A stretch of 44,407 nucleotides of DNA from a virus (IMGVR_UViG_3300010279_000003:1-44407), one strand, 5' to 3'. Shown: positions 1,327-17,867, counted from the first letter of the stretch. Made by a program: numbers and translations. Notes: generated by a model not told the origin, from the sequence alone.

Positions 1327-1466
1327 TCCACTCCACCCGTTATGATTTCAACAAATATCTGTATCTGAGAGTTTGCACTGTCGAGTTGCTGCCGTAGGCG
1401 TAGAACCTCTTCTTCAAGTTCCTTGATACGTTTTTGCAATGCAGGAATCGGGGCTATGATGTTCAT
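1323..1466 (-). CDS. Small hypothetical protein (~47 aa, coiled-coil-like)
   Basis: Short ORF with ATGA-type overlaps to both neighbours; coordinates approximate. Confidence 0.3.
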   Translation of the reverse strand: MNIIAPIPALQKRIKELEEEVLRLRQQLDSANSQIQIFVEIITGGVE

Positions 1467-2887
1467 TTCTTACCTCGTCTCTTCATGTAATTAAGCAACT
1501 CTTCCTGTACCGATTTCTTCTCGTCTGTACGCGCGGCGACAACCTCGTCCAGCGTATCTTTAGCCACGATGTGGTAGAGAAACACCGGGCGCTCGTGGCC
1601 CGCCTGTTTCTGGCGTACCGGGCCTATGCGCTCAACAACCTGCAAATAGTGCTCAAGGTTCCATCCTTGCGAAATAAACGCCAGATGATGGCCGCCGTCC
1701 TGTAAATTCAAACCATGGCCGGCTGACGCAGGGTGGACGCACAAAATCTCGATTTCGCCCCGGTTCCACGCTTCCATCTGCTTATTACCCTTAGCGCCTT
1801 TGGCAAACGCCTGCGCCTGAGGGAATCGCTTAAGGATACGCTCCAGTTCGTGCTTAAACTGATAGGCCACCAGTAACGGTGCACCCTGTAGCTCCTCAAC
1901 AATGGACTCAAGCGCATCCAGTTTCGTGTCGTGCACTTTCTCCCAGTCTTTCGTTGCTTCGCCGTCCGGTCCTGATACATACACAGCACCAGATGCAATC
2001 TGTAAACACTTCGACGTCTTTGCTGCCGCGTTAGCCGCTTCAACTTCTCCGCTCTCAAGTTCCGCGAATAACTTTTCCTCCATATCGATGTACGCCTGGC
2101 GCGCCTTCTTCGGCAGGTCGATTTCAACAGGGACGATAACGGGCGCTTCGCAGCCAAACCACTCGGCAGCGTCAATCGTGAGACTGATGTCCTTCATCTT
2201 CTGGTGAATTTCATTATCCGCGCCAGGGCGCGCATGATACTCACGTGCCATAGCCGATTTGCCTTTCTGTACTGAGTTAAACCAGCGGTCGGTGAATGCC
2301 GTGTACGACGACCCCAGGCGCTCACCCGCGTCGATAAACCAGTTCTGGCCCCACAAGTCTTTTAGGCCGTTTGGTGACGGTGTGCCTGTAAGGTTAATGA
2401 AACGCTTAACCTTTCCGAACGCCACTTTGCTAAGCGCCTTTGCCCGCTTGCTACCACCTGAACGGCTGCGGAATGATTTTAGTTTCGTGCTTTCATCGGC
2501 GACAATAACCGTAAAAGGCCAGTCGTCTTTGCCGTAGTAGTCAATCAGCCATTCAATAACTTCGTAGTTGGTGCACACCACGTTAGCGTCAGACTCCAGC
2601 GCCGCGATGCGGCGCTTTTCTGAACCGGTGGCATCGACGACACGCAGACACGGGAAACCCCACTTAGTTTGTTCTGAGGGCCATGTGCCGGACGCAACAC
2701 GCAGCGGGGCGAGGATTAACACTCGGTCGTCGTCATTAAGTTGGCCGTTGCGGAACAGTCGGTTAAGCACCCACATCGTTGCGGAACTTTTGCCCGCGCC
2801 CATCGAAGCCCAAATATTACAGCGCGGATGTTGCAACATGAACGAAGTCATGAGCTTCTGGTACTCTCGACGGATAAATTTAGACAT
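1463..2887 (-). CDS. SNF2/DEAD-like superfamily 2 DNA helicase
   Basis: Walker A (GAGKSS) and DESTKLK box; 474 aa. Confidence 0.85.
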   Translation of the reverse strand: MSKFIRREYQKLMTSFMLQHPRCNIWASMGAGKSSATMWVLNRLFRNGQLNDDDRVLILAPLRVASGTWPSEQTKWGFPCLRVVDATGSEKRRIAALESDANVVCTNYEVIEWLIDYYGKDDWPFTVIVADESTKLKSFRSRSGGSKRAKALSKVAFGKVKRFINLTGTPSPNGLKDLWGQNWFIDAGERLGSSYTAFTDRWFNSVQKGKSAMAREYHARPGADNEIHQKMKDISLTIDAAEWFGCEAPVIVPVEIDLPKKARQAYIDMEEKLFAELESGEVEAANAAAKTSKCLQIASGAVYVSGPDGEATKDWEKVHDTKLDALESIVEELQGAPLLVAYQFKHELERILKRFPQAQAFAKGAKGNKQMEAWNRGEIEILCVHPASAGHGLNLQDGGHHLAFISQGWNLEHYLQVVERIGPVRQKQAGHERPVFLYHIVAKDTLDEVVAARTDEKKSVQEELLNYMKRRGKK

Positions 2888-2889: not shown

Positions 2890-3084
2890 TTAACCCTTAA
2901 CGTAGAGCACCAGCTCTTTACGCCCGAACGCCGTAACGTTACCAGTTACATCTTCGATAACCAGTTTACCGTTCGACTCGACGAACACCGTATCAACGGC
3001 AACAGGACGACGGGTCTTAACGCTGAAAATCATGTCGCCTGGTACGATGTCACGTGCTGGCTTGCGGTCATATTCGTGTTTCAT
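2890..3084 (-). CDS. Hypothetical protein
   Basis: 64-aa ORF tightly packed between helicase and VRR-NUC genes. Confidence 0.45.
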   Translation of the reverse strand: MKHEYDRKPARDIVPGDMIFSVKTRRPVAVDTVFVESNGKLVIEDVTGNVTAFGRKELVLYVKG

Positions 3085-3679: not shown

Positions 3680-5881
3680 TTACTTAGCATAGCGTTTTAA
3701 CTCCGCACCTTCCGCTACAAGAGGGAAACCCTCCGCCCACTCAGGCAGCGAACACATTAATTTTTCCAGTTCAGCCACCGTGTACTCTGGGGCATCTGGA
3801 GTTTCGCACACCAATTCATCGTGTACCGAAAGCACGATGGGGTACCCGCCGCCTTCAACGTTAATCATCGCATACGCAAGTAAATCACGGCACAGCGCCT
3901 GAACAATGTTTTCGCAGGCTTTACCGCCGTGGGTGTACAGGGTAGTCCATTGGCGGGTTAACTGGTTTTCCCCCTGATACTTGATTCGCACATTCGTGTT
4001 TACCCGTCCGTCTTCGTCCGTTTCCTTTGTCACACTAACGCCGATTCCCGGATACGAGAGGATGCGACCTGACGGCAACTCCATGCATAACCACCAACCA
4101 GGAACCTTCCTGCCGGATGAATCAAATTCTACAGTACGCCATATGCGGATAGCCCTTTCCCCATTCCTTCGCAAGTGTGCTCCCGCCCAAAATTCACGAC
4201 CAGGATTACGCACAGCGGCTAAAATTCCGTCTTTAAGGTCACGCCAGAACGCTACTGTTTCAGGGTGTGACTCACGCCACATACGCTTGATTGCGTCGCA
4301 TGTGCGCCACACTTTCTTGTCAAGAATATATGATGGTCGATCGTCCTTTTCCCCTGGATGCGGGGGGCGCTTGGCTTCCTGGATGCGAGCCCATTCATAT
4401 CCTCTCGCGGTGGCTGACCAGATGTGGTCGGGGAATGTACCGTCCATTGTTTTTGCCATCTCAATAAGGTCAAGACCTAAGTTTTTGGCGAACGTAACGA
4501 ACGCTCCTACGCCGCCCTCGTAGCCGAGGCCAAGCTCGCAAGCCTTGCCTATCTGTCTTATTTCCTTGAAGTTTTTCTTAATATCGTCGGGGTCCATGCC
4601 AAACATCTTGCCCGCGGTTACACAGTAAATATCCAGTCCGGCGCGGAACGTATCGAGCGCGGTTTCTTCACCTGCCAGCCACGCAAGCCCGCGGCCTTCA
4701 ACGTTAGAGTAATCGGCGACGACAAACTTACGCCCGGCTTCCGGTATTATGCAGCTACGCACAGTAGATGCCGTTAGTTTGGCTACATCAAAACGGCGAT
4801 GGGCGCGGCCCTTAAGTAACGCCGAAATGCCTTTATCCAGCTCATAATCGTGATAGTAACCGCGTGCCAGGTTCTGCGGCTGGAAGCCTTTACCTGCCCA
4901 TCGCAGAGTACGTTTTGCCCCACCGTACTGCAAGCAACCGCGACGGCGGTCGTCCGAAGAGCGGCCCAGCAGCAGCGGGTTATATTTCGTGGACGCCGTG
5001 GACGCGGCCCCGAGGCGCATTTCGATAATCGTGCGTGCGTCGTCCGGTAAATCATCGTCCGCAAGCAAGTCATTCAGTGTCGACTTCTGCGCGTTGTGAA
5101 TACGGTGCGCAGGCGCAAGTTCACGCAGAATCGGAAGAAAGTCCTTCCCAGTAAGCGAGCAGCCGTGTTTGCGTTGGGCCTCTTCCTGTAACTGCGCTTT
5201 GTGTTTCTCCACGGCTTCAATCGCGGCTTCCGCCAGTGCCACGTCAACCTTAAACCCGCGGTCGTTGATTAACTGGTCCAGTTCCAGTACACGGTCTTCG
5301 AACTCGGAGTTACCCCACCGCGGCAGCTTATGGAAGACTTCACGCATTGCGGTGATGTCACTCACGGCGTATTTGATGAACAGTGCCCACTCGTCCGGGT
5401 GTGTTTCAGCGGTGTAGCGACGGATTTTGTAGTTCTTCGGCGTCGGTTTAGAGAAACGCTGAATCAGCGCCTTGCCTCGTTTGTCTTTCGCGTTGTCTGC
5501 TGACACGCCCAGCACTTCGCACAACGCATCGAGGGAACCCGGCAGCGCGTGACGAAACGCCCAAATCATCGTATCAATGGTGTTGCCTACAGGAATATCA
5601 AAGTCCCAGCAGTGTTTCATGATGAGCCTATCGAACATTGAGCCGTTGTGCCATACCATCTTGATGCGACTGTTCGGCTTAACCAGACGGCGTAGAGCGC
5701 GGTGTAAATCACCCGGCATGTCGCTGCCGTCGGTGCAATCCCATACCTGCACAGGCTCGTCGTCAAAGGCATAGGTACAGATGAGCACTTCGGTTGACGG
5801 GTGTTCGGCGTAAGCGTAGGAGCCGACTTTCTTCAAATCGGCTTCGGAGAATGTTTCAAAGTCCAGGTATAAGTAGCTCAT
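3680..5881 (-). CDS. DNA polymerase, family A, with 3'-5' exonuclease domain
   Basis: Exo motif YLDFETFS; pol motifs DYSNVEGR, RQIGKACELGLGYEGG, VHDELV; start set at ATG 5881 (MSYLYLDFE) with AAGGA RBS rather than the upstream alternative start in the ORF track. Confidence 0.9.
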   Translation of the reverse strand: MSYLYLDFETFSEADLKKVGSYAYAEHPSTEVLICTYAFDDEPVQVWDCTDGSDMPGDLHRALRRLVKPNSRIKMVWHNGSMFDRLIMKHCWDFDIPVGNTIDTMIWAFRHALPGSLDALCEVLGVSADNAKDKRGKALIQRFSKPTPKNYKIRRYTAETHPDEWALFIKYAVSDITAMREVFHKLPRWGNSEFEDRVLELDQLINDRGFKVDVALAEAAIEAVEKHKAQLQEEAQRKHGCSLTGKDFLPILRELAPAHRIHNAQKSTLNDLLADDDLPDDARTIIEMRLGAASTASTKYNPLLLGRSSDDRRRGCLQYGGAKRTLRWAGKGFQPQNLARGYYHDYELDKGISALLKGRAHRRFDVAKLTASTVRSCIIPEAGRKFVVADYSNVEGRGLAWLAGEETALDTFRAGLDIYCVTAGKMFGMDPDDIKKNFKEIRQIGKACELGLGYEGGVGAFVTFAKNLGLDLIEMAKTMDGTFPDHIWSATARGYEWARIQEAKRPPHPGEKDDRPSYILDKKVWRTCDAIKRMWRESHPETVAFWRDLKDGILAAVRNPGREFWAGAHLRRNGERAIRIWRTVEFDSSGRKVPGWWLCMELPSGRILSYPGIGVSVTKETDEDGRVNTNVRIKYQGENQLTRQWTTLYTHGGKACENIVQALCRDLLAYAMINVEGGGYPIVLSVHDELVCETPDAPEYTVAELEKLMCSLPEWAEGFPLVAEGAELKRYAK

Positions 5882-6046
5882 TTCTTTTTCCTTAAATCCA
5901 GTGCCTTCGTTTCGCTTAATCTTATTTTCATACAATCACGACAAATCCACACATGTCTGTACCCGGCGCGGTACTCATCCGCGTACCACGGAAGTGGCTT
6001 CATGTATCGGTATACGTGCTTACAGAAAAACATTATTTTCGACCCT

Positions 6047-6072: not shown

Positions 6073-6092
6073 CAGTTAAATTGGTTCAGATA

Positions 6093-6725
6093 TTAACGGC
6101 GACGACGTTCGCGGCGAGGTGCTTCATCTTTTTCATCGTCATCGTCTTCCAGGTCATTGACGCTTGCGGCGACTTTAGAACCACCAAACGCTTTACCTTC
6201 GCCAACATATTTAATTGCCAGCAGGTTAACGCCTAGAACTTTATATTTCTGGCTGAACCAGATTTCAACGCTTACATTAGCTACGCAGCCACTGTAAACC
6301 TGTTCACCTTCAATCTGTTCGCCGTCTACGTTGAAGTCCTGCTCTACCTGAGTCTCACCTTTTTTAGATGTTACAATCAGTGGCTGTTTCTGTGCCTTAG
6401 CTTTGAAGTAGAAGCCTTCCGGGAAGTCTTCAAACGGATTGTCGCGTTCAGCAATATCTTTAATTGCACATTTATCCATGTGCTTACCTTCGCCGTAGTT
6501 GGACTTCATCCACTTCTCGGCAGCGGCTGCGCCTAACGCTTCTTCAACTACAGCGTAGACAGTGTCGTAGAGCGCGTCGATTTGCGCGTGGTCAGACGGC
6601 AGGATTATAGTCGCGCTGTACTGGCCTTTAGTGATGGAGCCATCATCGTTTTCACGGTCTTTTTCGCGTTCGAATACGTTAACCCAGGCAGTGTTTACTT
6701 TACGCAGATTCAGCTTAATACCCAT
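6093..6725 (-). CDS. Hypothetical replication-module protein (possibly DUF2815-like)
   Basis: 210 aa, basic C-terminal tail RRERRRR; family assignment is from memory only. Confidence 0.55.
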   Translation of the reverse strand: MGIKLNLRKVNTAWVNVFEREKDRENDDGSITKGQYSATIILPSDHAQIDALYDTVYAVVEEALGAAAAEKWMKSNYGEGKHMDKCAIKDIAERDNPFEDFPEGFYFKAKAQKQPLIVTSKKGETQVEQDFNVDGEQIEGEQVYSGCVANVSVEIWFSQKYKVLGVNLLAIKYVGEGKAFGGSKVAASVNDLEDDDDEKDEAPRRERRRR

Positions 6726-6781: not shown

Positions 6782-6810
6782 ACTATAATAGCCAACTATT
6801 CAGGTGTCAA
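6782..6810 (-). promoter_or_regulatory. Sigma70-like promoter, class A (TTGACA-N17-TATAGT)
   Basis: Read on minus strand; near-identical copy at 8922..8950. Confidence 0.55.
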
Positions 6811-6814
6811 CACT

Positions 6815-8056
6815 TTATTCCAAATCTTCTTCACTAACCTGATTCCACTCAGGCCGTTTGTCGTCTGCCGTTGTGATGCATGGGGCACCTGGTTTACGTG
6901 TGATGAAGTCTTTCAGTTCTTCTTCCGGCACAACTTTAACCGCTTCGGTCGGCGTCATGAGCACTTCTTTAGTCAGCTTGTCGCCGTAGAGTTCTGTTAC
7001 TTTCTCCGCGTCTTTCCACGCACGATTGCCCATCTTACCTTCAACCAGCTTGTACCCAGGAACTTTCTTACCGGAATGCAACGCGGCAGCCATAGCTTTC
7101 TCAACCTTGTCGATGTGCTGGCGCAACAACGGCAACTTCTCGTACTCAGCTACGAGTTCCTCCGGCGTAAGTTCCAGCGCAAAGTCGTCCTCCAGTTCTT
7201 CCGCCAGCACCGCGTTGACGGTTTTTGTACGCGCGGCACACTGTTCAGAGAACCGGCACCACTGACAGCCATCGACCGACGGCTTGAAATCCGACGCTTT
7301 CAGGTTCTTCTTACCGCGGAAATATGCATCTAACGCTAACAGGGCACGTTTCTGTGCAAACTTAGCGAACAGTTCCAGACCTTCAACCGAGATGTCCCAC
7401 TCCGACGCACCGCCAGCGTACGGCTGGAAGATGACCAGACGAACGGTTGTTATGTTATAACGTCTCTTGAGTCGGCGATAAACACCTAGAGCGTAGAGCA
7501 TAAGCTGCTTGTTTTCTTTCGCTTCGACACGATGCCGTCCTGTTTTCAGGTCGCCGATGATAAGCATGTGCCCGTCAGTGTTAGCCAGTTCCTGAACGGC
7601 AACAAGGTCAGCGGTTCCGAACGTCTCAACGCCTTCATACCCAGGATGCAATACCTCAGTAAGATTGACGCGCATTTCCAGCTTGGCGTAAGTTGCTACA
7701 TCGATAATCGGTTTGCAGTAGGCGGTGTACTTTCGCACCTGCTCAATCATGTCCGCCGTAATCAGTACCGCGCCTTTCATCGGGCTGATTAGCGCCTTAA
7801 TCTGGCCTTTACCCTCATCCAGCACGTAAGCACCAACTTCACGCTCTAACGGCAACGCAGTGCCTTTGATGTACTGGTTTAGGTGCATCTCAGCTATCGT
7901 GTGCATGGCGGTACCTAGTACCGCCGCTTTGCCGGATGTGTTAGGAATATCTTTTTCACAGGCCAGCGATGCAGCGCAGCTTAGCCACTTTTTAGCGCCC
8001 GACGGCGACAATAAGGCGTGCACATCATTATTGCCACCGCGTTCTTTTAGAATCAT
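6815..8056 (-). CDS. Cas4/RecB-like PD-(D/E)XK nuclease (DUF2800-like) with C-terminal Cys cluster
   Basis: C-terminal CQWCRFSEQC motif; start set at ATG 8056 (MILKER) overlapping upstream stop; ends ...SEEDLE. Confidence 0.7.
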   Translation of the reverse strand: MILKERGGNNDVHALLSPSGAKKWLSCAASLACEKDIPNTSGKAAVLGTAMHTIAEMHLNQYIKGTALPLEREVGAYVLDEGKGQIKALISPMKGAVLITADMIEQVRKYTAYCKPIIDVATYAKLEMRVNLTEVLHPGYEGVETFGTADLVAVQELANTDGHMLIIGDLKTGRHRVEAKENKQLMLYALGVYRRLKRRYNITTVRLVIFQPYAGGASEWDISVEGLELFAKFAQKRALLALDAYFRGKKNLKASDFKPSVDGCQWCRFSEQCAARTKTVNAVLAEELEDDFALELTPEELVAEYEKLPLLRQHIDKVEKAMAAALHSGKKVPGYKLVEGKMGNRAWKDAEKVTELYGDKLTKEVLMTPTEAVKVVPEEELKDFITRKPGAPCITTADDKRPEWNQVSEEDLE

Positions 8057-8325
8057 GCTCTGTTCTCCCACGGGTCAATTAAATGCCGTGTCTTGTGGTC
8101 GCAATGTAAGGCCCATCCATACATCGACTCGAAGACATAAAAGTCAGGTTTGGCGAATGTCGTGCGCTTAATCTGCGACACATGACGGCCTATATCTTTA
8201 GCCCGCGGTACTTTGCCTAAGTACGCCATCTCTTCCATCTGGTGCGCACCGGACGGCGCACGCAACAGCCACAACGCCTCTGTGTTATCCCGCCTGTCTA
8301 CGGCGCGGTATAGTTGGTAAATCAT
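8053..8325 (-). CDS. Hypothetical protein
   Basis: 90-aa ORF in operon context. Confidence 0.5.
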   Translation of the reverse strand: MIYQLYRAVDRRDNTEALWLLRAPSGAHQMEEMAYLGKVPRAKDIGRHVSQIKRTTFAKPDFYVFESMYGWALHCDHKTRHLIDPWENRA

Positions 8326-8368
8326 AATCCCGACCCTCAGTTAAAGCGGCCCGAAGGCCGCGGGATAG

Positions 8369-8890
8369 TTATTCTTCTTCGAAATACTTGTTCTTGATTG
8401 CTGTCAGGCGTTCCAGGTACTCGGCCAGGTCTTCGTCTTTAATCGCGGCAATCTTCATCTTCTTACCGGTGAACTCTTCCAGCAGTTCGTCAGAATCGTC
8501 GCACGCGGCATCGCTTGGGCCTTCGTTAATCGCATCGTCGATAGCCTGAATCTGGTCGCGCAGAGACTGATAATTGACTTCTTCCTTCTCTTCTTCCGGT
8601 TCTGGCGTCTGCTCCTCTACTTTAGCTTTACGCGGCTTGCGTTTCGGCTTCTCTTCTTCCGCCGGTTTAGTGTCAACGAGGTCTTCACCTTCGACTGGGA
8701 GTTCTTTCGCCTTCTCGACTTCTTCAAGTGCTTTAGCCAGTTCTTTTTTAACTGTCTCCACCCCAGTTACCGCGACGTCAACAGTCAATTCACCTACAGA
8801 TTTATTAGTCGGTTGTTTCACACTGTTCGCAGCAATCAGTTCATGTGCAACTACGAAACGTTCCAGTAATACTAAGAATTTCTCTAACAT
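8369..8890 (-). CDS. Hypothetical Glu/Lys-rich protein
   Basis: 173 aa; first gene downstream of class A promoter at 8922..8950. Confidence 0.55.
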   Translation of the reverse strand: MLEKFLVLLERFVVAHELIAANSVKQPTNKSVGELTVDVAVTGVETVKKELAKALEEVEKAKELPVEGEDLVDTKPAEEEKPKRKPRKAKVEEQTPEPEEEKEEVNYQSLRDQIQAIDDAINEGPSDAACDDSDELLEEFTGKKMKIAAIKDEDLAEYLERLTAIKNKYFEEE

Positions 8891-8921
8891 TATTTATTCT
8901 CCTCTCGTTTGGTATGGGCTA

Positions 8922-8950
8922 ACTATAATAGCGAACTATTCACTTGTCAA
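8922..8950 (-). promoter_or_regulatory. Sigma70-like promoter, class A (TTGACA-N17-TATAGT)
   Basis: Read on minus strand; spacer contains GAATAGTT as in the 6782..6810 copy. Confidence 0.55.
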
Positions 8951-8954
8951 TGGG

Positions 8955-8983
8955 CTTTTCTAAAATAATTAATATGGTACTAT
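8955..8983 (+). promoter_or_regulatory. Candidate promoter for the XRE regulator (extended -10 TGgTACTAT, weak -35)
   Basis: TACTAT at 8978..8983 with TG two bases upstream; lies back-to-back with the minus-strand class A promoter. Confidence 0.35.
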
Positions 8984-9014
8984 TCACATATCAACTGACT
9001 AAGGAGTAATTGAC

Positions 9015-9230
9015 ATGCAACCATCTGAACTAGGCATCCGTGTAGAACAGCGCCGTAAAGAACTCGGCATTTCCCAACGCCGTCTGGCGGTGCTGACCGG
9101 GGTTTCCCAGGGCGCAATTAACCAGCTGGCACTTGGGGTAACCCAGGACGTCCGCCCGGCAACGCTGTTTAAACTGGCGGAAGTGCTGGAGGTAGACGCC
9201 AAGTGGCTGGCGCTAGGTGAAGGGGCTTAA
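9015..9230 (+). CDS. XRE-family helix-turn-helix transcriptional regulator (Cro/CI-like)
   Basis: 71 aa, HTH_3 signature (LGISQRRLAVLTGVSQGAINQL); AAGGAG RBS. Confidence 0.8.
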   Translation: MQPSELGIRVEQRRKELGISQRRLAVLTGVSQGAINQLALGVTQDVRPATLFKLAEVLEVDAKWLALGEGA

Positions 9231-9245
9231 TGCCCCTTTCTTTTT
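9221..9245 (+). terminator. Intrinsic terminator after the XRE gene
   Basis: Stem AGGGGC/GCCCCT, loop TTAAT, T-rich tail. Confidence 0.5.
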
Positions 9246-9247
9246 AC

Positions 9248-11488
9248 CTACTCCAAATCCTCCTCTGTCACCACCAGCATTTCATTTGGTTCGTATATTG
9301 TCTTCGGTCTTAATCTGTCGCCCATCTTTTCCGGTATCCTGTATGTGCCCGGTATAACTTCACCGTTAACATCGCACCCTAGCATCAACTCACCATCTTT
9401 CAGCATCTTCTCGAGATGGTGGTTGGTGATGGCGTGGTCGCCTGAGTTCGCCACTATCTGCCGTTGGGTAAAACCGCGTCCGGTGTCGTCGGCCTGCTGC
9501 AGGTCTTCCAGCGCGGCGAGTATTGATTCCTTACGCCCTTCATCCTTCCCGCGTTTTACAGCATTCTTTACGTTTTCTTTACCTTCTTTCGTCAGCCCTT
9601 CTTCCCGCTCTTTCTCCTCGTCAGTTTTGAACGGCTCGAAGCCCCACGGCATCAGCACAAGTGCCTTATGTGGTTCTGGCAGGTCGAGGTTTACGATTGT
9701 GCCGTATTCCTCTGTGCTACCCAGGAACTCAACCGCACGGTACTCTTTCGGCGGCGGGGCTTCACGGAACTGTACCGACTCCAGCACCATACCAACCGTC
9801 TTCTGTTGAGGCCCGTGCTTAAATTTAGAGTGGTATACATTTATCTGACGGTCTGTTGCGCGTTCAATTGTCAGTTCCACATCGACGCCTGCGTACAGCG
9901 CGCCACTGCCACGGGCTTTCTTTCCACCCTTCGGGGTATGGTGGACGACGCCTACCGCGGCTTTAGTTGTGTCGCGTACTTCTTTCATGATTGCGATAAC
10001 TTTACCCATACCGATTGCCGTTGATGAACTGTTCTCGTCGAACTTATCGATCGTCAGGGCCAGCGTCTGGTTGAGGGTGTCAAACGCAACCATGCCAATA
10101 GGTTCATCCCCCGCAGTTTCGCGCATTAACTTAATCAGGCTTTTCAGTTTTCCGACTTCACCCATGTCGATGACATGTACATAATCTTTACCTTCCTCAC
10201 CATATTTAGCCGCGAGTGCGTCAATACGTGTGCGTGTAGCCGCGCCACCCTCACCGTCGATATAGAAGTGATGGCAACGCTGGGTGTCCGCCCCGGCGAA
10301 CCGGTATCCGGCGGCGCTAAGATACATCATCCCCAGCGTATAGAACGATTTGTATGTGCCCGACTCCCCGACGATATCCCAGATGCAGTCTGACGGCATA
10401 TAACCTTCAACGACGAAATCAGCCTTTACCGGTTCCGGTAGCTCGTCCTCCTCTGAGCCATCATCGTCTTCCAGGTCGTCCAGGCTGCATGAAACAGATT
10501 CACGCGCACCCCATCCGATAGCCTCGGCGACTTCACTGAACGGCAGCCCGGTCGCATCACACGCATACTTCCACACCTCTTTCGGCGACATGCCTTCGGT
10601 TGCCGTAATGTCAGTGTCGTGGATCATGGTTACGTTCGGCGCTTCGTAGCCCTCGCGCGGGAAGCACAGCAGGAAGTCGTCCGGGCGCGGCGTAGGGTCG
10701 CTGTAATTTTCTGCATGTTCCGGCGTAGCTGGCATCTTAAGGCCGCGGGGCGTCATAACACCGCCGTACTCAAACGCCAGTGCCTCAAACGCATCAGTAA
10801 ACGCGGTACGCAGTTCTTCTGGTATCTGGTAGTCAGATGCGCTGCTCACCTCGTAATCCGGGATGCCTTCCAGTAACTCTTCCGGGTCAATCAGGTCGTT
10901 TCGGCGCGACCAGATAACGGTAGAGCCAACCGGCGGCAGGTACATAGGCTGCGACAGAGTGAAACCGCTGCGGTCCGCGCCCATGCCTTTGAAGAAGTGT
11001 TCCAGCAATCCATGGCGAACACGGATGATGTCTCCGCCTTCAACCGGGCGGCCCAGCGGCATGATGACGCGAAAGCGTGGTGACTCATCGGTATGGGATG
11101 CCGTGGTGTAGAGGCACATAGCCAGGCGGCTGCGCTTAACCAGGCGCACAGCTTCCTGATACTCTTCCGGTGTTGCGCTGTCGAAGTCCAGGTACGCCAG
11201 CGACGATTTGCTTACAGACGCGTCGCAGCGATAGAAAAAGCCTTTACGCGCTTGCTTAAAGTCGCCGGTTTCCGGGTCTGTTACGGTGCTGTGTGTAGAG
11301 TCGCACGCAGCGGTGATATACCCGGGCGCGGTCTTAGGGTTAATCCCATCACGAACGGCATCGAGCGGCTGGATTAGCTCTTTCAGGTCGTCCAGTGTTG
11401 CCGTGTGTGTGGTTCTGACGTTTATATCCTTTTTCTCCGCCCGCGCGTTGCGACGTGACCACGAGTAGGATAAAATTACATCGGACAT
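9248..11488 (-). CDS. Primase/helicase (primase-polymerase-like N-terminus plus RecA-like ATPase C-terminal half)
   Basis: 746 aa; Walker A-like GESGTYKS; acidic DFD motif near N-terminus; ends ...TEEDLE. Confidence 0.7.
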   Translation of the reverse strand: MSDVILSYSWSRRNARAEKKDINVRTTHTATLDDLKELIQPLDAVRDGINPKTAPGYITAACDSTHSTVTDPETGDFKQARKGFFYRCDASVSKSSLAYLDFDSATPEEYQEAVRLVKRSRLAMCLYTTASHTDESPRFRVIMPLGRPVEGGDIIRVRHGLLEHFFKGMGADRSGFTLSQPMYLPPVGSTVIWSRRNDLIDPEELLEGIPDYEVSSASDYQIPEELRTAFTDAFEALAFEYGGVMTPRGLKMPATPEHAENYSDPTPRPDDFLLCFPREGYEAPNVTMIHDTDITATEGMSPKEVWKYACDATGLPFSEVAEAIGWGARESVSCSLDDLEDDDGSEEDELPEPVKADFVVEGYMPSDCIWDIVGESGTYKSFYTLGMMYLSAAGYRFAGADTQRCHHFYIDGEGGAATRTRIDALAAKYGEEGKDYVHVIDMGEVGKLKSLIKLMRETAGDEPIGMVAFDTLNQTLALTIDKFDENSSSTAIGMGKVIAIMKEVRDTTKAAVGVVHHTPKGGKKARGSGALYAGVDVELTIERATDRQINVYHSKFKHGPQQKTVGMVLESVQFREAPPPKEYRAVEFLGSTEEYGTIVNLDLPEPHKALVLMPWGFEPFKTDEEKEREEGLTKEGKENVKNAVKRGKDEGRKESILAALEDLQQADDTGRGFTQRQIVANSGDHAITNHHLEKMLKDGELMLGCDVNGEVIPGTYRIPEKMGDRLRPKTIYEPNEMLVVTEEDLE

Positions 11489-11546
11489 GTTGTATTTCCT
11501 TCAGCAAGTAATTTGGCCTCGGCGTTCACCGCGTCGGGGCTTTCTT

Positions 11547-11780
11547 TTATTCCAGGTCTTCTAAAGTAGCTGTCATTCCGCGAACTTCGGCAACAGCACT
11601 ATATTTCCCGCCAACATTTTTCACGACACCAGATTTAACCAGCACCTTCAACGACCCTTCAATAATGGCGGAACTATAGTACTTAAAATAACTACGCCGC
11701 AAGTCCATAACGCTGCACGACCCTTTTTTACGTGTTAGCGAAACGACCGCCGTAAATACCCGCGACTGGAACTCGGTCAT
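11547..11780 (-). CDS. Hypothetical protein
   Basis: 77 aa; ends ...TLEDLE, the same tail as two replication proteins. Confidence 0.5.
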   Translation of the reverse strand: MTEFQSRVFTAVVSLTRKKGSCSVMDLRRSYFKYYSSAIIEGSLKVLVKSGVVKNVGGKYSAVAEVRGMTATLEDLE

Positions 11781-11947
11781 TTCACGTTCTCCTTAATCCA
11801 CGCTTCCACTTTCTCCGGGTCAAACGTACCTGGCTGACGACGGCCCATAATGCGAATACAACAATCCGGGAACTTCCCACTCTTTAACCAGTTATTCAGC
11901 GTGCGACGGGTAACCCCGATGCGCTCAGCTACCTCATTCTGCGTCAT
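11777..11947 (-). CDS. AlpA/excisionase-like HTH DNA-binding protein
   Basis: ~56-aa ORF not in the ORF track (below its length cutoff); motif VAERIGVTRRTLNNWLKSGKFP; first gene after promoter 11980..12008. Confidence 0.5.
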   Translation of the reverse strand: MTQNEVAERIGVTRRTLNNWLKSGKFPDCCIRIMGRRQPGTFDPEKVEAWIKENVK

Positions 11948-11979
11948 TCTCAAACCCCCATTATCAGTTAACGAAACAA

Positions 11980-12407: not shown

Positions 12408-12441
12408 TCACTTATCGAAACGAGACAGAGGAGTGAGGGTT

Positions 12442-12582
12442 ATGTTTAAGAAAGGTCAGTTGGCGAAAAAGAGGATGAATATGGTGTTGTCGCCGTATTT
12501 AGCCTTATACGGAAGAAACATGGTTACGTTCATCACAATAATTTACAGCTCATCGGCAACAATTTTAAATTCAAAGGGGTGA
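12442..12582 (+). CDS. Small hypothetical protein (~46 aa)
   Basis: Short ORF downstream of promoter with GAGG-type RBS. Confidence 0.35.
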   Translation: MFKKGQLAKKRMNMVLSPYLALYGRNMVTFITIIYSSSATILNSKG

Positions 12583-12586
12583 AGTG

Positions 12587-12790
12587 ATGGAAGAATTATT
12601 TGAAGAACTGAAACACCATAGACTGGAGAAAGTGCACTTCCAGGTAAACAGATACGAGGTTGTTTTATTAGACGGCCCGACTATTTCTTCCGGGGTATGC
12701 GAAGACTTGCTAAAAGTTTTACGTGCGCTACGAACGGCATCGAATCATGATGCTCGTGCCGAAGACTCTGAGGGAGGTTGCCGTGAATAA
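12587..12790 (+). CDS. Hypothetical protein
   Basis: ORF track 12584..12790, ATG at 12587. Confidence 0.5.
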   Translation: MEELFEELKHHRLEKVHFQVNRYEVVLLDGPTISSGVCEDLLKVLRALRTASNHDARAEDSEGGCRE

Positions 12791-12844
12791 GTTTGTTTTA
12801 ATCATCAGCGCCGTTTATGTGGTGCACGCGTTGTGGGGGTTGGT

Positions 12845-13000
12845 ATGAGAATCCGTATAACTGACCGCAGGCTTATAGATTTCGGTATCTCGGTAGGTGA
12901 TGTTTTTCTGGCGTTCAGCAGCAACCATTATGGTTTTATGATTGAGTACAAAGGGTCGTTATTGTTCGTGTATCGGGATGAATGCGAGGTTCTGGTATGA
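12845..13000 (+). CDS. Small hypothetical protein (~51 aa)
   Basis: Short ORF with overlapping stop/start to next ORF. Confidence 0.35.
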   Translation: MRIRITDRRLIDFGISVGDVFLAFSSNHYGFMIEYKGSLLFVYRDECEVLV

Positions 13001-13140
13001 GAGAAGCATTCGAACGGTGGGCCATCGTCGAGGGTTTGCCGATCAACAAGGGTTCGAAGAAAGAGTACCTGAACGTTAAGACGCGTCTCGCGTGGCGGGC
13101 GTGGAAAGCTGGTGTGCAAACTGTGATGAATAAGGTGTGA
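12997..13140 (+). CDS. Small hypothetical protein (~47 aa)
   Basis: Short ORF, ATGA overlap with upstream ORF. Confidence 0.35.
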   Translation: MREAFERWAIVEGLPINKGSKKEYLNVKTRLAWRAWKAGVQTVMNKV

Positions 13141-13143
13141 GAT

Positions 13144-13344
13144 ATGGGTAAGTGGATTAAGTGTAGTGAGCAGATGCCTGCTCCTTTCTCTCATGTACTT
13201 GTGACCGACGGGGACGAGGTTGAGATTAAATGGTTAGATGGTGATTTTGATGAGTGGGGTAGTTGGGAAGAATTCAACTCCAACATAGATAACGGGGATA
13301 TAGCGCACTGGAGGAAAGTACCTAAACCGCCGAAACTGGTGTAA
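13144..13344 (+). CDS. Hypothetical protein (DUF551-like)
   Basis: 66 aa; W...MP...HVLVTDG...W...HWRKVPKPP pattern. Confidence 0.5.
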   Translation: MGKWIKCSEQMPAPFSHVLVTDGDEVEIKWLDGDFDEWGSWEEFNSNIDNGDIAHWRKVPKPPKLV

Positions 13345-13503
13345 CAGGTCAATAGGTTACTATTTGGCTTAGTGGCTTACGCTGCTACACAGCAGCGTAC
13401 AACTTTAACCTAGTGTCGTCAAAAAGCGACACTTCTCTAAGACTCTGTTGGGTCAGGAATAAAGTGTCTCCGATTAGCGACATTAAACACTAATAAAATT
13501 TAC

Positions 13504-13532
13504 TTGCACACTGGGATAGAATAGGCTACTAT
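13504..13532 (+). promoter_or_regulatory. Sigma70-like promoter, class B (TTGCAC-N17-TACTAT)
   Basis: Followed by conserved leader AAACGAGAGGAGAGACAGAG then ATG at 13563. Confidence 0.6.
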
Positions 13533-13562
13533 TCATTTACACAAACGAGAGGAGAGACAGAG

Positions 13563-14042
13563 ATGAGTAACAAAAACGAAGTATTCGAGTACCTGATTGG
13601 CCAGTTACGGCAGCAGGTAAATGGCAACCAGTGTGAAGACCTGGCGCACGAGGTGTTGTCACTCAAGAATCAGTTACGTGATGCGTCAGAACATATTAAG
13701 GAGTTGCATAAGGCGTTGGCTACAGCTACAGGTGACGTAGGCGCTTATATAGCAGCAGAGCAATCTGGTTGCCGTAAGGAAGATACTCAGTACAACGCCT
13801 GGAGGCCGCATTATGGTGCACGACAACCTGTGCCGGATGGGACTATGGTATTTATCCGGTATCGCAACGGGGAGGAGCTGAAACACAGTGTAGCAGCAGA
13901 AAAGAGGTTGTGGATTTGGGATGGAACATACGCAGACATAGTGGAATACAAGATTGACACACAGGAATGTGAACATGACTATCGTTTGGTTCTGTGGTGT
14001 AGCGACTTACAGCAGTGCTCTAAATGCGGGGTGATCAAATGA
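13563..14042 (+). CDS. Hypothetical protein with C-terminal Cys cluster
   Basis: 159-aa ORF. Confidence 0.6.
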   Translation: MSNKNEVFEYLIGQLRQQVNGNQCEDLAHEVLSLKNQLRDASEHIKELHKALATATGDVGAYIAAEQSGCRKEDTQYNAWRPHYGARQPVPDGTMVFIRYRNGEELKHSVAAEKRLWIWDGTYADIVEYKIDTQECEHDYRLVLWCSDLQQCSKCGVIK

Positions 14043-14242
14043 CCAGCATATTATTTATCTGGGTATTGTCCGCAGGCCAGATGCAACTAGCGGCATCAGA
14101 AACGTTTTATTCGATGGAGGCGTGCCAGTCAGCGGCACGCGCCGCAGAGAACGCGCACTTTCTGTTTCAGGGTGACAAGCCCAACGACTCAGAGGTACGC
14201 GCTATCTGCTCACCTAAGCGACTTGGTAAACAGGAGAAGTGA
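14039..14242 (+). CDS. Hypothetical small exported protein (N-terminal signal-like segment)
   Basis: Hydrophobic N-terminus ILFIWVLSAGQMQLAA. Confidence 0.5.
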   Translation: MTSILFIWVLSAGQMQLAASETFYSMEACQSAARAAENAHFLFQGDKPNDSEVRAICSPKRLGKQEK

Positions 14243-14244
14243 TT

Positions 14245-14517
14245 ATGGTTCGGAAATATGAGTTAAAAGAAGACTGCGTTAATGGTCATATCGACTTAGA
14301 GGAAGATACAGACGGTGGCTGGGTTCGCTACGAAGACTACAAGGAACTGGATGACAGTTTCCAGGACTACATAACCGCTACTGACATGGAAATCGAGGGG
14401 CTTGTAGCGAGACTGGCAGAAGTAAACGCCGAGTTACAGAAATACAAAGACCAGTTCCCGGATTACGTCGAGTGCGCGAACTGTGGGTCGGTTACACATG
14501 TGGAAGGGGTGGAGTGA
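14245..14517 (+). CDS. Hypothetical protein
   Basis: ORF track 14239..14517; ATG at 14245 after CAGGAGAAG RBS. Confidence 0.5.
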   Translation: MVRKYELKEDCVNGHIDLEEDTDGGWVRYEDYKELDDSFQDYITATDMEIEGLVARLAEVNAELQKYKDQFPDYVECANCGSVTHVEGVE

Positions 14518-14711
14518 TGGTACAGAGGTATGAGGTGGAAAAATGGGGCCTGCCAGAGCCTGAGATGGCTGAGTACGCATACGGCGATTATGTAGAATAC
14601 GACGCTTATCTTAAACTGGAAGCAAAGTTACGTGAATTCGCTGAACAGGTAATGTACGAACCTTGTTCGAAAGTTACAGAAGAAATGGCCCGCGAGATTC
14701 TCGGAATATGA
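14517..14711 (+). CDS. Hypothetical protein
   Basis: ATG at 14517 overlapping upstream stop. Confidence 0.5.
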   Translation: MVQRYEVEKWGLPEPEMAEYAYGDYVEYDAYLKLEAKLREFAEQVMYEPCSKVTEEMAREILGI

Positions 14712-15001
14712 GCCTTGCAACTGACATCCTGAAACGAAGCGGCCTTGCGCCGCTGTCACCGAGAACGAACACCCGAATATACAAGCGCCGCCGTAACGCG
14801 CTGTACCCTGAGATTCAAGCCAGACGCAAAGCCATCCGCGCCTGCGGATTCCAGAGCGGGAAGGCCGTTAATCTAGGCGAGTTTAAGACGAAGGAACGCG
14901 CAGCAATCGCTAATCGGTTATTTAATTACTGGAAATCGCTGGGATATGATGATATTCCGACGAAACCGCAGAGACGACAATACATCTGGAGACATAAATA
15001 A
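14708..15001 (+). CDS. Hypothetical basic protein
   Basis: ATG at 14708 overlapping upstream stop. Confidence 0.5.
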   Translation: MSLATDILKRSGLAPLSPRTNTRIYKRRRNALYPEIQARRKAIRACGFQSGKAVNLGEFKTKERAAIANRLFNYWKSLGYDDIPTKPQRRQYIWRHK

Positions 15002-15076
15002 ACCGTTATTAAGATAATTCCTAACCGTGCTATCCTCCGGTTACTGCATACTTAATACGCACCTGGAGGATTCATC

Positions 15077-15385
15077 TTGGATAAATTTACTGAAACAGTG
15101 ACAGGCTGGCTTCTCGCTGCCGCGCTAGCCGGAGGGGTAATCGGGCTACGACAACACAAAGCCACTATTACTGGTCCTGTCGATGCTCTCTGTTTTCTCT
15201 CCACTGGATTTGCGTGCGCCGTATTTGGTGCACCTCTCGCCGCCCAATGGTTCGGTATCACCGGCGAGCGCGAGATAGCTGGCCTCGGATTTATCATCGC
15301 TGTCCTCTGGATGCCCATCTATTCCCGCCTCTCCGGTATCGTCGCCGGAGAATATATCGCACGTCGAGGAGGCACAGATGAATGA
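15077..15385 (+). CDS. Putative holin (three predicted transmembrane segments)
   Basis: 102 aa, TTG start 8 nt after GGAGGA; immediately upstream of endolysin. Confidence 0.55.
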   Translation: MDKFTETVTGWLLAAALAGGVIGLRQHKATITGPVDALCFLSTGFACAVFGAPLAAQWFGITGEREIAGLGFIIAVLWMPIYSRLSGIVAGEYIARRGGTDE

Positions 15386-15650
15386 GTTATTCTGGTTCGG
15401 TGGTATGCTGGCAATCGGAGGCGCATCGCTGTTTAATGTGTATCACCCCCGCGTGGATGACGGACTATTTGGCCGGGTGCTCTATATCCTGACTGCTATT
15501 GTCTGCGCCGCCGGAGGCATTCACCTGTTACAGGGCAGCATGTCGCCAACGTTGCCGGAGACATTAATCACATTAGTTGCGCTGCGTCAGATTCGACAGG
15601 CGTGGCTGTCATACGGAGGGCATGAGCGTGTCTCGAAATATTTCCGATAA
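15378..15650 (+). CDS. Membrane protein (second holin component or antiholin)
   Basis: 90 aa, two hydrophobic segments, overlaps holin stop and endolysin start. Confidence 0.45.
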   Translation: MNELFWFGGMLAIGGASLFNVYHPRVDDGLFGRVLYILTAIVCAAGGIHLLQGSMSPTLPETLITLVALRQIRQAWLSYGGHERVSKYFR

Positions 15651-16116
15651 TGGCTTACATTTCTGCGCCGCGTTCGAGGGATTCCGCGGAACTGCGTATC
15701 GTGCTACGCCGAATGAGAAGTACCTGACTATTGGGTACGGTCACTATGGGCCGGACGTAACACCAGGTAAGACCATCACCCCTGGCCAAGGCCTCCTGTT
15801 ACTGAATCGCGATATGGCTAAGGCCGTAGCTGCGGTTGATGCAGCAGCACACCATTCGCTGACACAGGCGCAGTTCGACGCCGTGTGTGACCTGGTCTAT
15901 AACGCCGGTGCAGGTGTGATTGCAGCTACTACTGGCACGGGTAAGGCGCTGCGTTCCGGTGATGTTGCGACGCTACGGGCTAAACTGGCGCTGTTTATCA
16001 ACCAGAACGGCAAACCGCTACTCGGCTTGCGCCGCCGTACAGCGGGTCGTCTGGCGCTGTACGACGGTAAACCGTGGCAGGAGGCTGAGGCTATTGGGCG
16101 CGCGGTGAAAGGTTGA
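15622..16116 (+). CDS. Endolysin, lysozyme (GH24-like)
   Basis: FEGFRGTAY and YLTIGYGH motifs; start ATG 15622 inside ORF-track ORF 15577..16116. Confidence 0.85.
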   Translation: MSVSRNISDNGLHFCAAFEGFRGTAYRATPNEKYLTIGYGHYGPDVTPGKTITPGQGLLLLNRDMAKAVAAVDAAAHHSLTQAQFDAVCDLVYNAGAGVIAATTGTGKALRSGDVATLRAKLALFINQNGKPLLGLRRRTAGRLALYDGKPWQEAEAIGRAVKG

Positions 16117-16183
16117 CACCTAAGACTAATCCGACGATACTTAAATCACCTCCTGTTCCATCCCTCTGCTCTCCAGTTTTATC

Positions 16184-16212
16184 CCGGCCCTGACCCAGCC
16201 GGGATTTTTTTT
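16184..16212 (+). terminator. Intrinsic terminator after the lysis genes
   Basis: Stem CCCGGC/GCCGGG followed by T8. Confidence 0.7.
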
Positions 16213-16234
16213 ATCTATTTTCTGCAATGACTAG

Positions 16235-16263
16235 TTGACTACTACCCTAGACCCTATTATATT
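16235..16263 (+). promoter_or_regulatory. Sigma70-like promoter (TTGACT-N17-TATATT)
   Basis: Followed by leader CGACAACGAGAACGGAGTAGAGAAG and ATG at 16297. Confidence 0.55.
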
Positions 16264-16296
16264 TACTCCATCGACAACGAGAACGGAGTAGAGAAG

Positions 16297-16488
16297 ATGA
16301 AAATTACTAAGATTAAGCATACCGATAACTGGGGTGATTTCCTGGAGATAGAGAAGTGCAGGGATGGTTCATTACTTATAACTTGCACCGACGGAGATAG
16401 TGACGAATTATCTAATGTTAATGTGAGCCTCGATGATTTTATGTCTATTGCTGAGCAGGTTATGGCGTTTTATGGAGATGTTAAATGA
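16297..16488 (+). CDS. Hypothetical protein
   Basis: 63-aa ORF with strong RBS. Confidence 0.5.
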   Translation: MKITKIKHTDNWGDFLEIEKCRDGSLLITCTDGDSDELSNVNVSLDDFMSIAEQVMAFYGDVK

Positions 16489-16634
16489 AAATCACAGATA
16501 TCGAAGCATTCAAAGACGCACAATTGATGGCACGCATCGCCGTTAGTAACCTGAGCAAAAGCATCCCAGCGGCCGCGTTCTGGTTCGCTGCGATGCAGAC
16601 ACTGAAAGCAGCTTATGCAGGAGAGAAGAAATGA
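16485..16634 (+). CDS. Small hypothetical protein (~49 aa)
   Basis: ATGA overlap with neighbours. Confidence 0.35.
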   Translation: MKITDIEAFKDAQLMARIAVSNLSKSIPAAAFWFAAMQTLKAAYAGEKK

Positions 16635-16789
16635 GCGAACAAGGTCAAGTAAGCCAACCGTTACGAGTAGGCCGTAAAGTCAGTCACACCCCGTTCCCGA
16701 CACGCGAGGAACTGATGAAACGAAACAGTTTCTCGGGGCCGGACAAGAACAAGTATCTCAATCGCATGTGGGGAGAGCGTAAAGAATGA
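16631..16789 (+). CDS. Small hypothetical protein (~52 aa)
   Basis: ATGA overlap with neighbours. Confidence 0.35.
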   Translation: MSEQGQVSQPLRVGRKVSHTPFPTREELMKRNSFSGPDKNKYLNRMWGERKE

Positions 16790-16974
16790 CTGACCGTGAA
16801 TACGAGAAAGCCTGTGTAGAAGCGGCACTCCGTCCCACCGACAATGGTGAATCGGAGATTGCTTGCCTGGATACTATGATTCAGTACTACGCAAATAAGG
16901 TAGACCGCCTGATGGAGCAACGTCGTGAACTGATTAACCGCTTCAACCTGAACAAAGGTGACACTAATGCCTAA
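16786..16974 (+). CDS. Hypothetical protein
   Basis: 62-aa ORF. Confidence 0.5.
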   Translation: MTDREYEKACVEAALRPTDNGESEIACLDTMIQYYANKVDRLMEQRRELINRFNLNKGDTNA

Positions 16975-17158
16975 AATCACAATCGCATCACTCGAGCGCC
17001 GTATTCTGGTGCTTGAGTCAGAGAAACAGACGTTAGGCGGGCAACTGTCAATTAACGGTGAATTTCAACTGGCGGCGTTTAAGTTGTTGTTGGAAGAACT
17101 GCGTAATAAGGCTTACGAGGAAGAACTGCGCGAACAGTATGAAGGATCAAGGTTGTGA
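16967..17158 (+). CDS. Hypothetical coiled-coil protein
   Basis: ATG 16967 inside ORF-track ORF 16958..17158. Confidence 0.5.
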   Translation: MPKITIASLERRILVLESEKQTLGGQLSINGEFQLAAFKLLLEELRNKAYEEELREQYEGSRL

Positions 17159-17337
17159 AAGCGCCTGAACCGGTAGTAATTGATGGCGTCCTGTGGAAAC
17201 CCTACTCGGTTAACCACATCGACGCCGACGGGAAGAAGTTTAGCTTCTACATTTTTGCAATTAGCCGTGAGCACGCCGCTTGTGTGGTCGATGATATACG
17301 AGAAACGGCGTGGCTTGGCGATGAGGTAGTGGGGTGA
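17155..17337 (+). CDS. Hypothetical protein
   Basis: GTG start overlapping upstream stop. Confidence 0.45.
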   Translation: MKAPEPVVIDGVLWKPYSVNHIDADGKKFSFYIFAISREHAACVVDDIRETAWLGDEVVG

Positions 17338-17339
17338 TT

Positions 17340-17510
17340 ATGTTCAGTGACATCAACGCAGCAATCGAAGAAGCAATATGGCGGCGCTATAACGGCGAGC
17401 AACAGCGGCACTTTTGCCTCGTGCAACGCGGTAACATGATTGCCGTAGTGCAGGACCGGGATAACAAATATCCGAATGCGATGTGGTCAACGAGGAATTT
17501 CTTAGGATGA
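17340..17510 (+). CDS. Small hypothetical protein (~56 aa)
   Basis: Short ORF, ATGA overlap downstream. Confidence 0.35.
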   Translation: MFSDINAAIEEAIWRRYNGEQQRHFCLVQRGNMIAVVQDRDNKYPNAMWSTRNFLG

Positions 17511-17749: not shown

Positions 17750-17842
17750 TCATCCCTAACGTCTGGGCTATCGCTGTAGCTAACAACCATTACGGCGGCG
17801 ATGGTAAAAGAGCACCACGACACGGCCTGTATAACTGATACA

Positions 17843-17867
17843 AGCCCTCTACGGAGGGCTTTTCTGT
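17843..17867 (+). terminator. Intrinsic terminator at the end of the early plus-strand block
   Basis: Stem AGCCCTC/GAGGGCT, loop TACG, then TTTTCTG. Confidence 0.55.

Follow-up and report, generated by a model that had tools for sequence, protein, structure and literature searches.

Acidic C-terminal tails that act as replisome glue are textbook knowledge for phages T7 and T4 and for Escherichia coli, yet they have been studied in few model systems. In T7, gp2.5, a protein that binds single-stranded DNA (an SSB), ends in ...EEADEDGDF and the helicase-primase gp4 in ...WSNDTDF; the two tails compete for a front basic patch on the gp5 polymerase (K587, K589, R590, R591) and for the basic patch of its thioredoxin-binding domain (TBD), and their interaction with gp5 serves polymerase loading, polymerase exchange and SSB displacement (PMC12339929; bioRxiv 10.64898/2026.05.20.726333). 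Acidic C-terminal tails are known on gp2.5-type SSBs more widely, including ORF6 of Enterobacter phage Enc34, which ends in WDEDEV according to its cloning primer (PMC5686142), and a duf2800-gp2.5-polA module has already been described (PMC8093625). Here, we analyse this module in a viral DNA sequence of 44,407 nucleotides (IMGVR_UViG_3300010279_000003:1-44407; the whole stretch is hereafter called the window), in which three early proteins end in the same four residues, EDLE. In the open-access literature, we found no account of a tail that the module's nuclease, primase, SSB and small proteins have in common, nor of such tails co-varying.

The three proteins are a DUF2800 nuclease (6815..8071), a helicase-primase (9248..11488) and a protein of 77 amino acids (aa), p77 (11547..11780), all encoded on the minus strand in the early/replication region. 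A first-pass annotation of the window had reported that each terminates in EDLE followed by a stop codon, and this is the case: ...QVSEEDLE in the nuclease, ...VVTEEDLE in the helicase-primase and ...TATLEDLE in p77. The nuclease tail (VSEEDLE, 6818..6838, minus strand, aa 412-418) lies outside the Pfam DUF2800 match, which stops at aa 407; the helicase-primase tail (VVTEEDLE) occupies 9251..9274 (minus strand, aa 739-746), and p77 ends in a disordered tail, ...RGMTATLEDLE (11550..11585, minus strand, aa 66-77). Profile matches upheld the identities first given to the two larger proteins, a primase/helicase (PF13481 AAA_25, phrog_3228) and a Cas4-like nuclease (PF10926, DUF2800 / PD-(D/E)XK). 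The nuclease match is full-length, scoring 229 bits over aa 18-407, and the catalytic residues and Cys cluster of the family are conserved: D155, D174, K176, C269, C272 and C278, together with C32, are invariant.

A tail so short, made of common residues, might recur by chance or arise from the DNA itself, as a repeat, gene-conversion tract or regulatory site where genes end, and promoter- and terminator-like signals do lie close past the gene ends. Under the amino-acid composition of the window, however, the probability that one protein ends in EDLE is 1.7e-5. We simulated 200,000 runs of 70 genes each: a 4-residue tail common to at least three genes occurred in 0 runs under window composition and in 1e-5 of runs under C-terminal composition, while any 3-residue tail common to at least three genes occurred in ~0.3% of runs. 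Among 421 six-frame open reading frames (ORFs) of at least 30 aa, an ending of the form [DE]L[DE] was found in three, namely the nuclease, the helicase-primase and p77. Coincidence is ruled out by these two results (simulated probability <=1e-5; 3/421 ORFs). Over their last eight residues, the three proteins each have a net charge of -3 to -4; the only other gene in the window to reach -3 is 17921..18505, probably the small terminase (TerS).

The tail codons are GAA GAA GAT TTG GAA, GAG GAG GAT TTG GAG and TTA GAA GAC CTG GAA, and orthologues show further synonymous variation (GAA/GAG, GAT/GAC, TTG/TTA/CTG/CTT) with D-L-E retained. Because the tail-coding segments differ at synonymous positions, the repeat is one of peptide and not of DNA, and these codon comparisons show that selection acts on the tail peptide. 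A DNA repeat or gene conversion is likewise ruled out, since the differences between tail segments, also among orthologues, fall at synonymous positions. With conservation across genera and co-variation between proteins (both described below) added to the simulated probability, an origin by chance or from a DNA signal is effectively refuted and has a negligible share of our belief.

Bases 6000-12000 of the window share ~90-92% identity with Kagunavirus (Guernseyvirinae), for example Escherichia phages SZH-1 and GertrudWoker_Bas73, and Salmonella Jerseyviruses are more distant; by nucleotide similarity, the source of the window is a Kagunavirus phage. When homologues were checked for conservation of the tail, the D-L core proved to be kept in Guernseyvirinae, in IMG/VR lineage L014 and in Dhillonvirus, while the flanks diverge. 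For p77, 29 of 30 full-length clusters at 90% identity end in E[DE]LE, and the Jerseyvirus protein (~70% identity) ends in ...QATPEDLE. EEDLE or EDDLE ends 115 of 120 primase homologue clusters and EGDLE one more; Jerseyvirus primases (64% identity) end in ...TEGDLE and Jerseyvirus nucleases in ...SEEDLE or ...TEDDLEA. Further afield, the primase and nuclease end, respectively, in ...KATYDDLE and ...AASDVDLA in Serratia phage Tsm2 (whose primase, at 32% identity, is alignable over the helicase part only), in ...AAADEDLE and ...VSDSDLE in L014, and in ...SATDDDLKD and ...EATDEDLSNE in Dhillonvirus TheodorHerzl, so that the D-L core is kept even in primases ~32% identical (Tsm2, Dhillonvirus, L014). 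We also sampled the nuclease family through 150 representatives that are mutually <50% identical. Among the 20 best-scoring of these, all 18 full-length nucleases end in D-L followed by one to three residues; the remaining representatives carry a related tail, ...DKRPA-(x)n-DDF[ED]D[LIV]..., which often ends in DL[ILVF].

Two internal copies of the motif, not noticed at first pass, were found in the SSB (NDLEDDDD) and in the primase (SLDDLEDDD). The primase copy (10460..10486, minus strand, aa 335-343) lies in the linker that joins the primase part to the AAA_25 domain, which starts at aa 352; among ORFs of 60 aa or more, [DE]DLE occurs nowhere else beyond the three tails, and the primase of Jerseyvirus SE2 has EEDLDDEE at the equivalent linker site. 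The SSB (6093..6725, minus strand) matches PF10991, Enc34_ssDNA-bd, at 57.8 bits (cut-off 26) and phrog_112 at E = 8e-42. Its copy (6135..6158, minus strand, aa 190-197) falls in the disordered C-terminal region directly past the oligonucleotide/oligosaccharide-binding (OB) fold; in an alignment of homologues (47-98% identity), its D191 and L192 never change and the surrounding residues vary. Tsm2 (ATDDDLEGDDD), Dhillonvirus (SDEDLDNDDED) and L014 (TDDDLGDDDD) have the motif at the equivalent position. The usual acidic terminus of the SSB is replaced by a basic end, DEAPRRERRRR (6096..6128, minus strand), in which A202, P203, R204, R205, R207 and R208 are invariant in the same alignment. Dhillonvirus SSBs (L006/L016) have two to four tandem acidic/basic repeats of a (D/E)EAPRRxRR element (DEAPRKSKKSKRR...), and the SSB of Kosakonia phage Kc259 has a lysine-rich equivalent of the basic end.

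These copies bear on a reading of the tail as a C-terminal degron or sorting tag, recognised by a host or phage protease or adaptor, through which early proteins are switched off together. The position of the motif at the extreme C-terminus of three early proteins would suit such a role, and so would the HslV-family peptidase annotated in Bas73 and in phage FSL SP-101; a phage-encoded reader would also explain co-variation. On the other hand, the motif tolerates zero to three residues beyond Leu-x (...DLEA, ...DLSNE, ...DLKD), and this variable distance to the C-terminus, together with the internal copies, argues that there is no strict need for a free carboxylate and that the tail is no C-degron. 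The copies in the SSB and primase linker are invariant, homologous tails of gp2.5-type SSBs are documented interaction elements, and we know of no bacterial degron that resembles EDLE. We consider a degron highly improbable.

Tails differ between lineages and agree within a genome. This was seen in a sample of 92 sources (80 nuclease-bearing IMG/VR loci, 11 phage loci and the window), every one of which (92/92) has a DUF2815 SSB and 87 of which have a PolA match. In YeP6 and L041, the nuclease ends in ...ETESAESLI and the SSB in ...EGADAESLI; the corresponding tails are ...AAAEFI and ...DAGEFV in L018, and ...ADDFVDVSGETVEDLV (ending VEDLV) and ...EDEFDDITEGAAAADLV (ending AADLV) in the BPP-1-like source, which also has a 62-aa protein ending in ...LDDFEAV. 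Staphylococcus Sa2wa has ...AEDDFDKL on its DUF2800 protein, ...AEDDFDELDTDDEDFL on its DUF2815 protein and ...ESLEDLI on VirE; Burkholderia AH2 carries an acidic-x-L ending on four proteins, and Kc259 combines a nuclease ending in ...KKDLSLD with an internal ...SEGDLGFDED in its SSB. In Casjensviridae (Escherichia phage Utah, L008; Klebsiella phage KPN U2874, L094), there are six acidic-tailed proteins. The ending is ...D[DE]V on five of them, namely the primase, gp05/gp14, the nuclease, the SSB and TerS; the sixth, an SNF2 helicase, ends in ...WDDE[ED]. The published ending of Enc34 ORF6 matches these Casjensviridae tails, and the presence of the same tail on TerS suggests a connection of packaging to this hub as well.

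For a permutation test of this agreement, one representative was taken per lineage (<60% nuclease identity; n = 33-36) and the right-justified last 3, 4 and 6 residues were compared. The test supported concordance between nuclease and primase tails (BLOSUM p = 1.5e-4 to 3.5e-4) and between nuclease and SSB tails (p = 5e-4 to 0.013; 5e-5 to 1e-3 when identities were scored); SSB and primase gave p = 0.02 to 0.08, and the nuclease-polymerase and SSB-polymerase controls were null (p = 0.14 to 0.85). Under a second, offset-tolerant score with representatives chosen at random, the nuclease-primase comparison had a median p of 0.002, and SSB-primase and every polymerase comparison were non-significant. 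It is a subset of the lineages, for the most part proteobacterial ones, that gives rise to the signal. When IMG/VR was scanned with the single proteins P0166 and P0157, there were no matches. Taken together, these sequence comparisons show that the tail motif is real, selected as a peptide, conserved and co-varying between proteins of one genome.

Co-variation is also what separates a shared motif from a set of unconnected tails, each an intramolecular mimic of single-stranded DNA (ssDNA) on its own protein's DNA-binding surface and with no common partner, as for gp2.5, T4 gp32 and Enc34 ORF6. All four carriers bind DNA or plausibly do so, acidic tails are common in DNA-binding proteins, and removal of the Enc34 ORF6 tail alters binding to double-stranded DNA (PMC5686142). 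Autoinhibition, however, needs charge and not sequence: it predicts neither three to five shared residues on unrelated folds nor their joint change between lineages (ESLI/ESLI, DEV on four to five proteins per genome, EDLE on three, DLSLD/DLGFD), and the hydrophobic Leu is invariant. We therefore regard independent ssDNA mimicry as unlikely.

The first-pass annotation had read the tails as a shared docking motif for a common partner. That interpretation is supported in part: conservation and within-genome co-variation give good support to the motif, and we infer that the EDLE type is probably a docking motif, whereas the partner is a matter of analogy. As an explanation of the whole, we favour, with somewhat better than even confidence, a short linear docking motif, [ST]-[DE]-x-D-L-[E/x], which sits in disordered tails or linkers, at the C-terminus or close to it, and is directed at one phage-encoded partner. 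Its four early carriers, namely the helicase-primase (C-terminus and linker), the DUF2800 nuclease and p77 (C-termini) and the SSB (internally), would bind one site on this single partner, in turn or in competition, and common docking would concentrate replication and recombination activities at the fork and hand them over.

By analogy with T7, the putative receptor is the family-A polymerase (3680..5935, minus strand; PF00476, phrog_17), an intact protein of 751 aa ending in ...AELKRYAK; it is our leading candidate, held at a little less than even confidence. The analogy with T7 drawn at first pass is apt, in that the gp2.5 and gp4 endings (...EDGDF and ...NDTDF) both bind basic patches of gp5, and the polymerase is the most likely receptor because, in T7, gp4 and gp2.5 compete through their acidic tails for those patches. 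Of the conserved core of nuclease, SSB and polymerase, the polymerase alone has no copy of the motif; this, the T7-like pairing of a gp2.5-type SSB with a family-A polymerase and the preference for a phage-encoded receptor all point to it. That preference arises because three genera of phages that share the host E. coli each have a tail of their own (Kagunavirus EDLE, Dhillonvirus D[DE]DLxx, Chivirus DDEV), which favours a co-evolving receptor encoded by the phage and makes a host protein less likely. In an alignment at only ~20-21% identity, the front basic patch of T7 gp5 (K587-R591) falls opposite a PolA segment that is likewise basic, ERAIRIWR; the corresponding hairpin reads K-x-R-R in lineages with DL[IV] tails and is basic in many lineages.

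Several observations weigh against docking on the polymerase or against a shared motif in general. Across lineages, the correlation of PolA hairpin charge with tail concordance was not significant (rho 0.29, p 0.14), and the Chivirus hairpin is not basic. The tails have no terminal aromatic residue, which is essential in T7, where suppressors of a gp2.5 without its terminal Phe mapped to gene 5; they end in Glu, and their only hydrophobic residue is the Leu at -2. The offset-tolerant score made the nuclease-SSB concordance only moderately significant (median p = 0.02, maximum 0.08), and no shared tail was found in many lineages, including Firmicutes- and Bacteroidota-type loci (with, for example, an SSB ending in ...NPITGQPY). 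In the passages retrieved from a 2026 preprint, the nuclease homologue of phage Bas14 is dispensable for the phage, so that this tail at least is not essential. Finally, an AlphaFold2 (AF2) model of the SSB, built to see if its internal motif would dock on the OB fold, had a mean predicted local distance difference test (pLDDT) score of 56, with the tail region below 50, and did not place aa 175-210 with confidence.

The SSB core or its basic end comes second as a putative receptor. Docking there, in the OB-fold ssDNA groove or on the basic APRRxRR end, would recruit the carriers to the SSB on ssDNA or let them displace it. The tail of T7 gp2.5 competes with ssDNA for its own groove, where AF2 also puts it (PMC12339929), and in crystals of Enc34 ORF6 the tail occupies a beta-sheet groove of the neighbouring molecule (PMC5686142). 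The invariant basic extension of the SSB is gained exactly where the primase also has a D-L tail (Guernseyvirinae, L014, Dhillonvirus), and a nuclease and an annealing protein could pair as exonuclease and annealase, as in lambda Exo-Beta. The first-pass annotation had likewise named the 6093..6725 protein as a possible target of the tails. This SSB carries the motif itself, however, and so resembles another client of the receptor; a tail in the groove would be in competition with DNA, nuclease and SSB tails are also shared in lineages whose SSB is without the basic extension, and the unplaced aa 175-210 of the AF2 model count against this reading too. We rate docking on the SSB as rather unlikely, and retain the polymerase as the preferred receptor.

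The smallest carrier, p77, was modelled by AF2 with a mean pLDDT of 84.7: aa 1-65 are confident (block pLDDT ~90-97) and aa 66-77 fall below 50. The model predicts a winged helix (H-H-H-beta-hairpin) with a disordered tail, an assignment at the level of fold only. Its Foldseek neighbours are generic winged helices, comprising the T4 MotA N-terminal domain, the LexA DNA-binding domain, RPA32C and MCM-WH (TM 0.65-0.74, E >=2e-3). There was no Pfam match, PHROGs gave phrog_5169 alone (function not annotated), and a word-indexed search for remote homologues returned only relatives of 86-99% identity; tblastn recovered Jerseyvirus copies at ~70% identity, and p77 was found in no genus other than Kagunavirus and Jerseyvirus. 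Elsewhere, the small proteins that bear a tail are different ones (Utah gp05, AH2 gp76 and the BPP-1-like 62-aa protein). Its tail, shared with the other carriers, speaks for docking of p77 at their site. The place in the replisome assigned to it at first pass would follow from that tail together with the winged-helix fold, and p77 may just as well be a regulator or a decoy as an adaptor.

In transcription order, the early region comprises an Xis-like helix-turn-helix (HTH) protein (11777..11953, minus strand), p77, the helicase-primase, a Cro/CI-type HTH gene (9015..9230, plus strand), a 173-aa protein (p173; 8369..8890; phrog_3127) followed by p90, the nuclease, the SSB, the polymerase, a 64-aa ORF (2890..3084) with no family match and an SNF2 helicase (1463..2887). 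The Cro/CI-type gene sits inside the minus-strand region, convergent with the primase gene, and a G+C-rich hairpin between their stop codons (9219..9239) is a possible bidirectional terminator. Two near-consensus sigma-70-like promoters (TTGACA-17-TATAGT, 11/12 matches) occur on the minus strand at 6782..6810, directly past the nuclease stop and upstream of the SSB gene, and at 8922..8950, upstream of the p173 gene. The strongly acidic p173, whose relatives are annotated as '13.88 kDa late protein', has a conserved acidic-aromatic tail of its own: ...KYFEEE in the window, ...KYYEEE in Tsm2 and ...TYFELED in Dhillonvirus gp48. Basic C-termini like that of the SSB occur on the SNF2-related helicase (...MKRRGKK) and on an HNH endonuclease (832..1326; ...GVKRRR), whereas the primase, nuclease and p77 end in acidic tails. 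In relatives, the polymerase gene is broken near aa 466-484: Salmonella phage SE2 has two ORFs (14909..18008) and FSL SP-101 a 1032-aa ORF (12434..15532), an interruption consistent with an inserted mobile element.

The findings extend the principle of acidic replisome tails to a replication module that is among the most widespread in phages (DUF2800 alone has 11,623 clusters at E ≤ 1e-3), with a different motif, extra carriers (the nuclease, a winged-helix protein and TerS) and clear within-genome co-variation. They offer a sequence-only route for assigning small proteins such as p77 to a replication hub, suggest peptides for pull-downs aimed at finding the receptor and predict which swaps of phage modules should fail. 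More tentatively, the DUF2800–DUF2815–PolA module, which occurs in thousands of phage lineages, may use a lineage-specific 'tail code', in which an acidic-hydrophobic peptide of three to six residues marks the proteins that dock on one hub, tail and hub co-evolving. Besides the SSB, nuclease and primase-helicase, the mark may sit on small winged-helix adaptors, an SNF2 helicase and even, within Casjensviridae, TerS. Such a code, if true, would couple replication, recombination and packaging, and could form a compatibility barrier in the exchange of modules between phages.

Among the carriers is a nuclease known to trigger retron defence, so that its interaction partners are of current interest. 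Bas14_0045 (B14T; TheodorHerzl gp45, L006 9012..10442) is 47% identical to the window nuclease and ends in ...ATDEDLSNE. The retrieved passages of the 2026 preprint describe it as an active PD-(D/E)XK nuclease with a C-terminal part that is protease-sensitive in vitro, and as the phage trigger of a type IX retron, and report that it cleaves multicopy single-stranded DNA (msDNA); Kagunavirus nucleases may be sensed likewise. In those passages, the protein is treated as the retron-IX trigger, and its C-terminal motif and protein partners are not addressed.

Like T7, the window has near-identical, disordered acidic endings on at least two replisome proteins, the helicase-primase among them, together with a gp2.5-fold SSB and a family-A polymerase. 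It differs in several respects. Its tails end in D-L-E, with Leu at -2 and an acidic last residue, whereas T7 tails end in Phe; its SSB carries the motif internally and has a basic end, the tail being terminal on SSBs of other lineages; there are extra carriers, the DUF2800 nuclease and a small winged-helix protein here, joined by TerS and the SNF2 helicase in Casjensviridae; and its helicase-primase is of the AAA_25 type and not a homologue of gp4. The EDLE tails are thus acidic, disordered and shared with the helicase-primase, as in T7, and have neither the terminal aromatic residue nor a terminal position on the SSB; in the strict sense, they do not belong to the T7 tail family. Enc34 ORF6 belongs to the same family as the window SSB (PF10991, DUF2815), and the published work treats its tail as a feature of that SSB only; in the window SSB, the invariant basic APRRERRRR comes after an internal motif.

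The beta-clamp-binding motif, a Gln-led hydrophobic pentapeptide with a consensus of the QL[SD]LF type, was considered and rejected; the tails are without Gln, rich in acidic residues and have a single Leu. The C-terminal tip of bacterial SSB (…DDDIPF) is likewise an acidic-plus-hydrophobic short linear motif on a disordered tail, and organises genome-maintenance proteins. The window differs from it in sequence, having no I-P-F ending, and in its SSB, which is of the gp2.5 type and not of the bacterial OB type, with an unrelated fold and a basic end, and the hub is inverted: bacterial SSB is one tail carrier with many readers, whereas here there are many carriers and presumably one reader.

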